Source of the DNA: Bacteroidota bacterium
GTDB taxonomy: Bacteria; Bacteroidota; Bacteroidia; UBA4408
NCBI GenBank assembly: GCA_037131955.1
Contig: JBAXQC010000007.1
Span: 3,004-67,003, forward strand
Reading direction: 5' to 3'
Length of the DNA: 64,000 bases
This document shows positions 2,817-20,052 of the stretch, one piece after another (within the stretch, counting starts at the first letter, position 1; each line of letters starts with the position of its first letter). A program made the position numbers and the translations under genes. The notes beneath the pieces were generated by a model that worked only from the letters and a program-made list of their open reading frames with translations, was not told the origin of the DNA and searched no databases.

Positions 2817-3641
2817 ATGGGACTTAAAAAACTTAGACCGTTGACACCGTCGCAACGATTCAAACTCGTTAGCGACTATAGTGAAATAACCACTAATGTG
2901 CCTGAAAAGTCATTACTTGCAGGTGCAAAAAGATCTGGAGGAAGAAATAACTCTGGAAAAATGACCATGCGATATATCGGTGGTGGTCACAAACAAAATT
3001 ATCGTTTCATCGATTTCAAAAGAGACAAAGATGGTATCCCTGCTACCGTTAAGTCAATCGAGTACGATCCAAATCGTTCCGCAAGAATTTCTTTAGTATT
3101 CTACAAAGACGGAGAAAAAAGATACATCGTTGCTCCAAATGGAATTAAAGTTGGTCAAACAATCTTATCCGGTACTGGTGCTACACCTGATGTAGGGAAT
3201 ACATTATTTCTTTCCGAGATTCCATTAGGAACAATCATTCACAACATAGAATTACGTCCGGGTCAAGGTGCCTCTATTGCTAGAAGTGCCGGAAGCTATG
3301 CACAATTAGCTGCAAGAGACGGAAAATACGCTGTAATAAAAATGCCTTCTGGTGAAACTAGATTAATTTTAACTACTTGCAAAGCAACCATTGGTTCTGT
3401 TTCTAATCCCGACCATAACTTAGAGGTATCTGGTAAAGCAGGTAGAACTCGTTGGATGGGCAAGAGACCAAGAACTCGTCCAGTTGCAATGAATCCTGTA
3501 GATCATCCAATGGGTGGTGGAGAAGGTAGAGCCTCTGGAGGTCACCCAAGATCTAGAAATGGTGTGCCAGCAAAAGGATACAAAACAAGAACTCTTAAGA
3601 AAAGTTCTAACAGATACATAATCGAAAAAAGGAAAAAATAA
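2817..3641 (+). CDS. rplB: 50S ribosomal protein L2
   Basis: 274 aa with the L2 signature ([15 protein letters not shown]..., [22 protein letters not shown]). Confidence 0.95.
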
Positions 3642-17743: not shown

Positions 17744-19255
17744 ATGAAACGCTCAAAATTGATTTTATTCTTTGTTTTGATAGCCTCTTTTTCTTTTGCA
17801 CAATTTAAAAATAACAAATGGTTGATGGGATATGGAAACCCACCTGCTCCAAATAATGGAACTAAAATAGAATTTAATAACAATGTACGAATAGTAAGCT
17901 ATGATCCAAGGCAAATGTGGTTTAGCTGGAATTTTTCAGGCCTAAGTGACAAAGATGACAATTGGTTTGTTTATACCAACGGTGGAGCAGTTTGCAATAA
18001 AAACCACGAGGTTTTGATAAATGGACTTGGTTTAAGCCCAGGGGGTGATGACCCAGGTACTCTTAATGGTGGAAACATATTTTTATCTCAATCATTATTT
18101 TTGCCTTTTGATAGTAGTAATACTCAATATTTGTTTCATTCTAACCGAAGTACTTGTATAGATTTAAATCATCCCCTTTACGGAAGACCTATATCTTTAA
18201 ACCTTTTTTATTCAAAGATTGACCCCTCCTCTGAAAATGGTGCAGGAAAAATTGTGGCAAAAAATATTGCTGTTATTGCAGATACACTGTCCATTGGCAA
18301 AATAACAAGTGTTCGGCACTCTAATGGCAGAGATTGGTGGGTATTTGTAAGACATTTTTATGAAGATAAATTTTACTCCATTCTAGTTACACCTGATAGT
18401 GTTCATATACCAGTTCAAATTTCAACCAGTGCCCCATCAACAGCTTTTTCATCGCAGGTTTGCATTTCACCTAATGGCAAGTATTATGCAGCCTTTTCTA
18501 ACATTGCAAGTCAACAATTAAGATTGTATGATGTTGATCGCTGTAATGGAAAGTTAGAAAATTATAGGCAGAAATTTATTACAAATAATCTTGCCGGACT
18601 TGTTGCCTTTTCACCCAATTCAAGATTTCTATACATAGGTTCTGCGGATAGTATATGGCAATTTGATATGCAAGCACCCGATGTGTTTGAATCGCAAACC
18701 TTGATTGGTGTGTATGATGGAGCTGGAACAAAAACTGGTTCAGGGTATTATTTTAGTTTTATGTGGCTTGCACCTGATGGTAAAATATATATGAGTGTTT
18801 CAGCACAATTGGGCAGAAAACTCCACGTTATAAATAATCCAGATTTATTAGGCATTGCATGCGATTTGCAGCAACATTCTATCGATATTCCTACCTACAA
18901 TGATCAAACTACCCCTACCCCAATAAACTACGATCTAAAACAAGAACCAGGCAGCCCTTGCGATACCCTTGGTGTTGGTTTGCAACAATTAAAAATCAAA
19001 GATTTAGAATTACAAATTTTCCCCAACCCAAGCTCTGGCAAGTTTAGCATGGAGTATTTGCCACAAACAAAAAGCGGGATGCTATATGTATATGATATGC
19101 AAGGCAAAGAAGTGTATAGAGAATATGTATCTCCATATACAAGTATTAAAAATTTAGATTTAAGTACTAAACTTGCCAATGGTACCTATGGCTTGAGTTT
19201 AGTTTTTGGTGAACAGAGAAATAATACAACAATTATAGTAAATAAAAACAATTAG
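17744..19255 (+). CDS. Secreted hypothetical protein with a T9SS C-terminal sorting domain
   Basis: Signal peptide MKRSKLILFFVLIASFSFAQ. C-terminal LQIFPNPSSGKFSMEY...GTYGLSLVF is typical of the Por secretion tail. Confidence 0.5.
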   Translation: MKRSKLILFFVLIASFSFAQFKNNKWLMGYGNPPAPNNGTKIEFNNNVRIVSYDPRQMWFSWNFSGLSDKDDNWFVYTNGGAVCNKNHEVLINGLGLSPGGDDPGTLNGGNIFLSQSLFLPFDSSNTQYLFHSNRSTCIDLNHPLYGRPISLNLFYSKIDPSSENGAGKIVAKNIAVIADTLSIGKITSVRHSNGRDWWVFVRHFYEDKFYSILVTPDSVHIPVQISTSAPSTAFSSQVCISPNGKYYAAFSNIASQQLRLYDVDRCNGKLENYRQKFITNNLAGLVAFSPNSRFLYIGSADSIWQFDMQAPDVFESQTLIGVYDGAGTKTGSGYYFSFMWLAPDGKIYMSVSAQLGRKLHVINNPDLLGIACDLQQHSIDIPTYNDQTTPTPINYDLKQEPGSPCDTLGVGLQQLKIKDLELQIFPNPSSGKFSMEYLPQTKSGMLYVYDMQGKEVYREYVSPYTSIKNLDLSTKLANGTYGLSLVFGEQRNNTTIIVNKNN

Positions 19256-19266
19256 CACGAATCTCA

Positions 19267-19298
19267 TTCCCCCTTTGAAGGGGGATAAAGGGGGATGA
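19267..19298. repeat. Left arm of a perfect 32-bp inverted repeat (GC-rich hairpin element) flanking the DUF559 gene
   Basis: TTCCCCCTTTGAAGGGGGATAAAGGGGGATGA is the exact reverse complement of 19698-19729. It contains the hairpin CCCCC-TTTGAA-GGGGG and a GGGGGAT direct repeat. Confidence 0.85.
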
Positions 19299-19317
19299 TA
19301 AAAAAGAAAAAAATTAA

Positions 19318-19734
19318 ATGAACAACTTAAATAATCATTACAATAAAAATCTAAAATCGTTTGCAAGAAAACACAGAAATGAAAGTACAAAAGCCGAAAT
19401 AAAATTATGGACAGAATTGTTATCAAAAAAAAAGATGCTGGGATACCCATTTTTAAGGCAAAGACCCATAGAAAACTTTATTGCAGATTTCTTTTGTAAA
19501 TCTCTACACCTCATTATTGAAACGGATGGATATTCTCACCAACTAACAGAAGTAATTGAAAAAGATATACAAAAAGAAAATCGTTTAAAGGAATTAGGTT
19601 ATTTCGTTTTAAGATTTCAGGATGAAGAAGTACTAAACGATATAGAAAATGTAAGATTAGAAATAGAAAATTCGATAAAAAACTTGGAAGACAATGGTCA
19701 TCCCCCTTTATCCCCCTTCAAAGGGGGAAACTGA
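19318..19734 (+). CDS. DUF559 (Vsr-like endonuclease fold) domain protein; last ~11 codons encoded by the right repeat arm
   Basis: 138 aa with DUF559 hallmarks (KLW..L...LGYPFLRQRPIENFIADFF....LIIETDGYSH......D..R...L...GYFVLRF.DEEVLNDIENV). Confidence 0.75.
   Translation: MNNLNNHYNKNLKSFARKHRNESTKAEIKLWTELLSKKKMLGYPFLRQRPIENFIADFFCKSLHLIIETDGYSHQLTEVIEKDIQKENRLKELGYFVLRFQDEEVLNDIENVRLEIENSIKNLEDNGHPPLSPFKGGN
19698..19729. repeat. Right arm of the 32-bp inverted repeat; a degenerate third hairpin copy follows at 19741-19766
   Basis: TCATCCCCCTTTATCCCCCTTCAAAGGGGGAA is the reverse complement of 19267-19298. It overlaps the 3' end of the DUF559 ORF. Confidence 0.85.
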
Positions 19735-19794
19735 GGTTACTTTATCCCTCATCTAAAGGGGACAACAGAAGTTTGGTATTAAAAAAATAAAAGC

Positions 19795-20052
19795 ATGAAA
19801 ACAACAAAAACTATTTTGTCAACACTTACATTTCTAATTTGTGGCATTGCAATTTCTCAAACCAAAGACTCTACAAACAAAACAAAAAAACAAGAATACA
19901 TAGAAAACTACATTTCCAATTTCCCCTACAAAAACTCAGAAATTTATCCAGTTATAAGTAATATTTCTTTGTGGGATACCTCCGGTTCAGTTCCCGTAAT
20001 AAACATGAATAGCATTATGATGAATATGGAAAGAAAAACGGAGAAAAAATAA
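19795..20052 (+). CDS. Small hypothetical secreted protein
   Basis: 85 aa ORF with a signal-peptide-like N-terminus. I recognise no homology. Confidence 0.3.
   Translation: MKTTKTILSTLTFLICGIAISQTKDSTNKTKKQEYIENYISNFPYKNSEIYPVISNISLWDTSGSVPVINMNSIMMNMERKTEKK

Follow-up and report, generated by a model that had tools for sequence, protein, structure and literature searches.

What does it mean that a small nuclease gene lies exactly between two inverted copies of one hairpin-forming motif? The question is posed by a DUF559 gene in a 64,000-nucleotide stretch of a Bacteroidota bacterium (GenBank assembly GCA_037131955.1, contig JBAXQC010000007.1, positions 3,004 to 67,003 of the forward strand; this whole stretch is hereafter the window), where two arms, 19267-19298 and 19698-19729, form an inverted repeat of 32 nt, 100% complementary and with 399 nt between them, around an intact open reading frame (ORF) for a 138-aa protein. 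The original prediction, made from the sequence alone, took this to be either a miniature mobile cassette or a hairpin family that travels with DUF559. We find that the arms belong to a conserved family of structured repeats which systematically flank DUF559 genes in distant genomes, and that the arm-DUF559-arm module is inherited, and gained or lost, as a unit. Tentatively, we favour the view that DUF559 is the cognate nuclease of this repeat family, in a partnership like that between repetitive extragenic palindromic (REP) sequences and the tyrosine transposases associated with REPs (RAYTs).

A repeat search of the window bore out the predicted repeat and its sharp ends: the adjoining bases on the outside (A at 19266, A at 19730) and on the inside (T at 19299, G at 19697) are unpaired. 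The 32-mer, at up to three mismatches, matched the two arms only (chance expectation 0.00 in 64 kb), as did its 16-nt core at up to two mismatches (chance expectation 0.03), and six of the 18 runs of five G or five C in the window, where GC content is 28-36%, fall in the arms. Uniqueness within 64 kb is what a chance or purely local structural palindrome, devoid of wider meaning, would show. That explanation is refuted by the chance expectation and by dozens of distant genomes that share the architecture, and we give it essentially no credence.

The evidence comes from 80 reference-genome loci fetched through the DUF559 protein alone, 75 of which were analysed with a strict arm pattern (C4-7, loop, G4-7, 1-6 nt, G4-7). 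Both arms were found at 28 loci, one arm at 29 and none at 18, so that the motif accompanies the small DUF559 gene in 57 of 75; farther than 1 kb from the gene there is about one arm per 56 kb, by our own count from the pattern listing. Adjacent +/- arm pairs enclose 366-516 nt, which is one DUF559 ORF, in 38 of 44 cases, and the arms that flank DUF559 point their ATGA ends inward. Cassette hosts include Pedobacter, Pontibacter, Cyclobacteriaceae, Chitinophagales, Balneolaceae, Ignavibacteria and Chlorobiota. The consensus arm, ~30 nt long and of fixed polarity, reads (G)T-C5-x1x2-TG-x2'x1'-G5-N2-5-G5-A(T/G)GA and contains a covarying 7-bp hairpin: in the alternation of TT/AA, GC/GC and TC/GA, 99.6% of cells are paired and 25 are changed on both sides, which none of 500 shuffles reached. 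The central dinucleotide is TG in 257 arms versus CA in 4, and non-Watson-Crick pairs on the arm strand are G:T in 11 cases versus A:C in 1. Arm type tracks the DUF559 protein clade. DUF559 was not seen here to be multicopy as had been supposed: two of the sampled metagenome-assembled genomes (MAGs) each contributed two loci, and in the one compared (nzgw115) the two had different arm types. We also considered that the ORF had been inserted into an existing palindrome, and this is ruled out by the geometry, the inner ends (G5-ATGA … TCAT-C5) being the opposite of a split palindrome; in the merged form of L010, a right arm has fused with the left arm that follows it. Bacteroidota-type cassettes also turned up in MAGs labelled 'archaeon', 'Burkholderiales' and 'Agrobacterium' (L041, L054 and L062, respectively), probably through binning contamination; the flanks of L041 and L062 are syntenic with those of L061 and L055, both of them Bacteroidota loci.

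Purifying selection acts on the arms, whose conservation exceeds that of synonymous sites. In a comparison of the window with L083 they are identical at 64 of 64 positions, while the synonymous divergence (dS) of the gene is 0.33, and in Pontibacter and Balneolaceae they stay near consensus despite saturated synonymous sites. Strong coevolution of the two arms of a cassette was tested and found to be modest: among 53 cassettes, spacers are identical in 32% of within-cassette and 17% of between-cassette comparisons, and loops show no difference. Matched changes on both arms do occur, as in the Pontibacter spacer (CA/TG in L040 vs TA/TA in L046) and in the base after ATGA (T/A in L046, C/G in L060). 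By our reading of the motif, the perfect match of the window arms is less surprising than it appears, some 25 of the 32 positions being essentially fixed family-wide and the lineage-specific part being the shared 5-nt spacer ATAAA. Because concerted evolution between arms is modest, most of the perfect repeat of the window is accounted for by two copies of one motif under strong constraint, to which a rare spacer common to both is added.

The enclosed gene fits the prediction made for it. Its product matches PF04480 (DUF559) over residues 11-120 with an E-value of 3e-28 (98.2 bits, cut-off 20.6), residues D57, E68, D70, G71 and H74 are invariant in an alignment of 37 sequences, and the Vsr-type motif D ... 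E-x-D-G ... H is intact; profile matches to solved nuclease folds were also obtained, with PDB 3hrl (E 1.4e-24) and with PDB 3r3p, the homing endonuclease I-Bth0305I (E 2.8e-8). The protein is accordingly annotated here as a predicted Vsr-like PD-(D/E)XK endonuclease, and a DUF559 protein from Caulobacter acts as a DNA-damaging Vsr-like enzyme (PMC12907096). The gene core is under purifying selection, with a ratio of nonsynonymous to synonymous substitution rates (dN/dS) of 0.05-0.18 (0.15-0.16 for the window vs L083 and L084). The C-terminus is encoded by the repeat, as had been noticed: codons 128-137 (HPPLSPFKGG) are right-arm sequence, and an antisense ORF, 19199-19450, reads the identical peptide from the left arm. 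Of 120 homologues, 27 have tails from the same hairpin, CCCCCTTCAAAGGGGG, and between them they use all three of its reading frames (PF[KE]G in 14, PPSKG in 5, PLQRG in 4 and other variants in 4), and the conserved thing is therefore the nucleic acid and not a peptide motif. Tails encoded in this way (…HPPxPFKGG, …PPSKGE, …PLQRG) represent read-through of a DNA motif and are not to be treated as protein features.

By comparison of flanks, at least 10 groups have the module at orthologous positions in different species; among the syntenic loci there are some 50 strong flank matches, all of them left-left or right-right, in the same orientation. Presence/absence polymorphism between related species, as foreseen, is seen at the Pedobacter cysS-M28 peptidase site, which holds the module in six species or strains (L006, L009, L010, L012, L016, L227) and has neither gene nor arms in P. 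agri, P. sandarakinus and P. yulinensis, where the peptidase gene comes immediately after cysS (L224, L225 and L226; intergenic lengths 181, 17 and 80 nt). The module is thus inherited and gained or lost as a unit. No empty site turned up at the window locus in the lineage to which the window belongs: L088 and L090 belong to one species, L083 shares only a block made up of the gene for a protein sorted by the type IX secretion system (T9SS), DUF559 and an 85-aa ORF, and across the ~17 assemblies from the population of the window the module is fixed.

Such gains and losses bear on the main idea of the original prediction, a selfish cassette, here of homing type, in which arm-DUF559-arm would itself be mobile: the nuclease would cut cassette-free alleles or mini-units (short ORF-less repeats, described below) and repair would copy the cassette in, the arms being ends carried along and the mini-units deletion derivatives. 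The clean empty sites of 17 and 80 nt in Pedobacter argue for it, and so does a close copy in an unrelated context, L084, which is 89% identical in nucleotide sequence to the window and has unrelated flanks; long-term synteny and strong purifying selection argue against it, as does the fixation of the cassette in all assemblies sampled from the window's population. Truncated second copies, and further repeats of an arm plus the start of the ORF, would also suit such a cassette. In L006 (4500-4665) the last third of DUF559 with a right arm lies upstream of the intact cassette, and in L083 (5652-5800) there are extra left arms, one of them followed by the ORF's first 18 nt and a stop; these indicate local duplication and deletion. 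The cassette of Pedobacter sp. Leaf176 (L227) is flanked at 2872-2890 and 3424-3443 by a 20-nt direct repeat of the cysS 3' end (ATAGCAAGGAAGGTAMAA, 95% identical), which may be the footprint of its arrival. No target-site duplication was found by inspection at the window copy, and none was consistent across loci. The arm pattern had zero matches in viral contigs, a result that counts against homing and on which a phage origin, also considered, was rejected. Solo arms, moreover, are far commoner than cassettes among the matches listed from our metagenome scan, and polar to transcription (below). On balance we consider a homing cassette unlikely. A mobile cassette in the transposon sense was not upheld either, given a 32-mer unique in the window, no target-site duplication seen there, at least 10 syntenic groups, purifying selection and fixation in the window's population.

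Known mobile systems differ from the module accordingly. With the I-Bth0305I family of free-standing Vsr-like homing endonucleases it shares a small Vsr-fold nuclease, to which the 3r3p match relates it in sequence, presence/absence between related genomes and apparent read-through expression from a host gene; it differs in lying outside any intron or intein, in being flanked by conserved structured repeats and in its stability at syntenic loci across genera. Terminal inverted repeats are present in the window cassette as in insertion sequences and miniature inverted-repeat transposable elements (MITEs), but its sole ORF is DUF559, with no transposase, unlike insertion sequences, and its arm pair is unique in the window, with no multicopy dispersal there, unlike MITEs. 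MITEs bounded by terminal inverted repeats, such as Correia/NEMIS, are short, are co-transcribed with their neighbours and can form long RNA stems; the long form described here differs from them in carrying a nuclease gene and no transposase, and no target-site duplication was seen at the window copy.

Arms also occur away from DUF559. A metagenome scan with CCCCCTTTGAAGGGGGNNGGGGGATGA, in which 80 loci were analysed among the matches listed (the scope of the counts of matches and solo arms given here and below), yielded 104 arm matches, of which 21 adjoin a DUF559 ORF, while 70 have room for such an ORF but none adjoining and are mostly solo, in unrelated contexts. The arms are not private to DUF559. 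Solo arms lie downstream of co-directional genes: on their C5 side, in 58 de-duplicated flank classes, the end of a co-directional gene was found 32 times versus 5 times for the start of a divergent gene (p 7e-6). Arms also form short inverted doublets of 64-116 nt and, around or near DUF559 genes, tandem arrays of ORF-less mini-units (period 143-171 nt, ~2-7.5 copies, 82-97% match), laid out as arm, short spacer, inverted arm and linker; some mini-units retain the first or last nucleotides of the ORF and resemble internal deletions. Around one solo arm, more than 150 nt are common to nine contigs of one sample, and some arms are therefore parts of larger composite repeats. Matches to Flavo-1 RNA (RF01705) above its gathering score were observed ~75-210 nt from solo arms in several metagenome contigs (L130 1508-1588, L152 1470-1551, L160 534-614 and L122 2900-2997).

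The polarity of solo arms raises the possibility that the arms work only in the transcript, DUF559 being expressed by read-through in a co-directional gene string. The two arms could form a long stem with the ORF as its loop and so make a processing site, for example an RNase III substrate, or each arm could protect the end of the neighbouring mRNA or limit expression of a harmful nuclease, and solo arms would be 3'-end elements of other genes. When the cassette is modelled as one RNA, it is predicted to fold into an arm stem of ~40 bp (-120 kcal/mol, z -6.95), but the outer hairpins differ in tandem arrays and in hybrid cassettes, so that a stem of full length does not hold generally. At 57 of 69 loci (12 not) the gene next upstream runs in the same direction, often 5-130 nt away, and the leader between left arm and start codon in the window, 19 nt as against the ~20 nt predicted, is in our judgement too short for a promoter; near it we found one sigma-70-like site, a weak one, and fewer such sites than in shuffles. 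Hairpin covariation and the excess of G:T over A:C on the arm strand are what an RNA would show, yet the G:U-tolerant polarity of the right arm is antisense to DUF559, so that one transcript cannot read both arms in the preferred polarity. There is no U-tract after the arms (T 37-42% at +5 to +7), and intrinsic terminators, none of which was called at the arms in arm orientation, were rejected as an explanation. An RNA-level role also leaves unexplained the association with DUF559 and the tracking of clade by arm type. We rate the proposal that the arms act in RNA only as possible but doubtful; a role in processing, end protection or limiting nuclease expression is nevertheless a serious alternative or second layer.

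Known RNA families gave little to set beside the arms. Rfam returned no gathering-level match on the window region or on 14 cassette loci, and an E-value scan of the window region nothing relevant. The nearest family is Whalefall-1 (RF01762), at 22.8 bits against a gathering score of 37, a below-threshold resemblance that would suit an RNA-level role. Its consensus, CUCUCC-UUGG-GGAGAG ... AGGGUGAGGA, runs like the arms from a pyrimidine tract through a loop to a purine tract and then to another purine tract; the 24-nt second hairpin of the model is not found in the arms. The passages on it in Weinberg et al. (2010, PMC2864571) give whale-fall metagenomes as its only known source and mention no gene association. 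The Pedobacter 'Pedo-repair' motif, another candidate, was not borne out, with no match even in the Pedobacter loci.

Inverted repeats around a gene could also serve as an invertible switch, arm-arm recombination flipping DUF559 and so uncoupling it from the upstream transcription unit in a form of phase variation. One 799-bp MEGAHIT contig from the window's population (L092; ENA ERZ27272061 k141_1343175) joins window 19265-19729 to 19298-18933, that is, arm-DUF559-arm to the reverse complement of the left flank, with the breakpoint inside the arm; it may represent a genuine inversion variant or else an assembly error caused by the repeat. The inverted junction appears in one of ~17 assemblies, ~16 being standard, and could be a mis-join at a 32-bp repeat; the same orientation of all ~50 strong flank matches also tells against a switch. 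A promoter probably outside the repeat, given the 19-nt leader, would fit a switch, as would the enrichment of DUF559 (odds ratio 14.3) among the families with model-predicted programmed inversions in PMC9881135, for which we found no follow-up. No recombinase Pfam family was found among the genes within 10 kb on either side of the cassette, and a shared trans-acting invertase is hard to square with arm sequences that differ between cassettes in a single genome. We therefore think a switch very improbable. The arms do create assembly breakpoints, which may explain why DUF559 is among the predicted inversion targets.

The closest parallel is the REP/REPIN-RAYT system (PMC3116915, PMC5581495). 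As there, a nuclease gene lies between two inverted short palindromic repeats, the repeats also occur extragenically as solo copies and inverted doublets, the low-copy gene is mostly vertically inherited and under selection (here, the syntenic groups and the dN/dS values above), and gene subfamilies have their own repeat type, even inside one genome. The differences lie in the enzyme, which is a PD-(D/E)XK Vsr-like PF04480 protein here and not an IS200/IS605-type HUH Y1 transposase, and in the repeats. REP palindromes carry a GTAG or CGTC tetranucleotide tag at one end (PMC3733652), whereas the arms have neither tag and read (G)T-C5 ... G5-A(T/G)GA, with an extra G-run and fixed polarity. Tandem arrays of mini-units are a further difference, as is the want of dispersed copies within the 64 kb of the window; other genomes have solo copies, doublets and arrays. 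Because its gene is PF04480 and not a Y1 (HUH) transposase, the DUF559 module is an analogue and not a member of the REP/RAYT system.

The REP/REPIN-RAYT pattern is matched in geometry, in vertical inheritance, in repeat types that go with the clade and in the occurrence of solo arms, doublets and arrays, and we therefore lean, with less than even confidence, towards a partnership that makes DUF559 the cognate nuclease of the structured repeats. The two arms would be putative recognition or cleavage sites of DUF559, whose gene would sit between its own arms as a RAYT gene sits between inverted REPs, and nicking at folded arms would cause the repeats to be copied, amplified in tandem and homogenised. 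In the window genome the family would be in an apparently minimal state, the flanking pair alone in 64 kb. The arms are probably transcribed too, because the module usually lies inside co-directional gene strings that leave no room for a promoter, and as a second layer the RNA may serve as end-protecting or processing hairpins.

Several points weigh against a cognate nuclease. Within the 64 kb of the window there are no dispersed arm copies and hence, in this genome, no repeat population for the enzyme to serve; elsewhere, the arm counts cover loci and contigs. A PD-(D/E)XK nickase has no known way of transposing DNA alone. The transcriptional polarity of solo arms and the G:T bias fit a role at RNA level at least equally well, the likeness of arms is only modestly greater inside a cassette than between cassettes, and 18 of 75 loci have no arm by the strict pattern.

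What such a nuclease would recognise may be hinted at by a second symmetry of the arms. The bases 3' of the second G-run mirror, and do not complement, the bases 5' of the first G-run (e.g. window 19278-19298). In 208 distinct arms, mirror position 1 is A/A in 157, C/T in 26 and A/T in 22, position 2 is A/T in 123 and G/G in 70, and position 3 is G/G in 140. The tetramer after the second G-run goes with the hairpin type: ATGA with TT..AA, TGGA or TGGT with GC..GC, and AGGA with T(C/T)..GA. An arm thus runs from pyrimidine tract through loop and purine tract to a turn of 2-5 nt and a mirror purine tract, and in one arm type, GGAGGGGG-CA-GGGGGAGG, the homopurine mirror repeat is perfect. In addition, the hairpin loops resemble the palindromes TTCGAA, GCCGGC and TCCGGA after a C-to-T change on one strand, leaving T.G at the tip. 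The antiparallel purine-motif triplex code allows G.G:C, A.A:T, T.A:T and T.C:G, and the arm combinations fit it. It is conceivable, though improbable, that the arms fold as an intramolecular triplex 'paperclip', or as H-DNA in the duplex, with T.G at the hairpin tip, that this folded form is the substrate of the Vsr-like nuclease and that, with ycjD of E. coli, they make up a cross-phylum class of triplex-capable repeats with a dedicated DUF559 nuclease. We keep this as a conjecture because the variant classes that support it number only about five.

The ycjD case concerns E. coli K-12 (NC_000913.3 ~1351150-1351860; L223 7150-7860), whose DUF559 gene ends (…NRRSPSP*) in a C-run/G-run hairpin, followed by a degenerate duplicate of the ycjD 3' end and then by CCCCTCGCCCCTCTGGGGAGAGGGTTAGGGTGAGGGG, a dispersed repeat that every one of the 5426 complete E. 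coli genomes contains, with a median of 16 places per genome. The element presumably resembles the 'boxC' repeats. Its layout of tract, loop, tract and mirror tract is that of the arms, but it belongs to another phylum, has another sequence and lies on one side of the gene only. The association was seen once; as a lead from outside the family it also speaks for the cognate-nuclease reading.

The features of the window locus, with the mini-unit arrays of other loci, are as follows.

Table. Features of the arm-DUF559-arm module in the window, and arrays of mini-units at related loci.
Feature	Position	Strand	Remarks
Outer left flank (conserved; …AATTAGCACGAATCTCA)	19244-19266	+	Overlaps the stop codon of the T9SS-sorted protein gene 17744-19255
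Left arm, TT-CCCCC-TTTGAA-GGGGG-ATAAA-GGGGG-ATGA	19267-19298	+ (arm orientation)	Perfect 32-nt inverted repeat with 19698-19729
Hairpin 1, C5 TT-TG-AA G5, near-palindrome with central TG	19269-19284	+	Helix covariation in the family; local fold
Leader, A-rich, 19 nt, from left arm to start codon	19299-19317	+	Read from sequence
DUF559 (predicted Vsr-like PD-(D/E)XK) endonuclease gene, 138 aa	19318-19734	+	Core residues 11-120; arm-encoded tail 128-137
Right arm	19698-19729	- (arm orientation)	Same motif; overlaps the last ten codons of the ORF
Hairpin 2, on + strand C5 TTCAAA G5	19712-19727	-	Core search, local fold
Degenerate partial duplicate of the distal right arm ('third copy')	19740-19762	-	83% identity to 19706-19728
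85-aa ORF, no Pfam match, accompanies the cassette	19795-20052	+	Membership of the unit uncertain
Mini-unit arrays, L034	4056-4965, 5415-6500		Directly beside or 1.4 kb from DUF559
Mini-unit arrays, L019	3957-4954		Directly beside or 1.4 kb from DUF559
Mini-unit arrays, L048	4069-4837, 5398-5852, 6751-7748		Directly beside or 1.4 kb from DUF559

Beyond the arms themselves, the conserved flank and the following ORF travel some way with the cassette. The outer left flank is shared with L084, in its unrelated genomic context, at 94.7% identity over window 19244-19281, and it also precedes each extra left arm in L083. The third copy that had been proposed at 19741-19766 is indeed a degenerate copy, but with the limits given in the table, and it is a local duplicate, with none in the related loci L083 and L084. 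The 85-aa ORF is 81% identical in nucleotide sequence in L083 (6435-6713), where synteny otherwise stops at the shared block; an ORF of 85-92 aa without a Pfam match keeps beside the cassette at synteny's end, and the first ~17 nt of the window ORF trail the cassette even in L084 (545-561). Neighbouring genes in the window carry T9SS sorting domains, which places the organism in the Bacteroidota; the scaffold that holds the window is metagenomic and 161.6 kb long. The one immediately upstream, 17744-19255 (503 aa), has 74% nucleotide identity to L090 4001-5503 while the flanking genes are 99% identical on both sides, and because of this contrast between strains we read it, from these comparisons, as a probable hypervariable or recombinant surface-protein allele.

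We found no description of DUF559 genes with hairpin arms in the literature on DUF559, on ycjD, on inverted repeats or on RAYT/REPIN in Bacteroidetes, and the arrangement appears undescribed. The DUF559 family is very large, and almost nothing is known of what its small nucleases do; a conserved non-coding partner gives it a concrete candidate substrate. If the analogy with REP/RAYT is true, the nesting of a nuclease gene between its own repeats would have arisen at least twice, with unrelated enzymes, and the module would have a bearing on the evolution, in the genomes of bacteria, of repeat populations that persist and pass down vertically.

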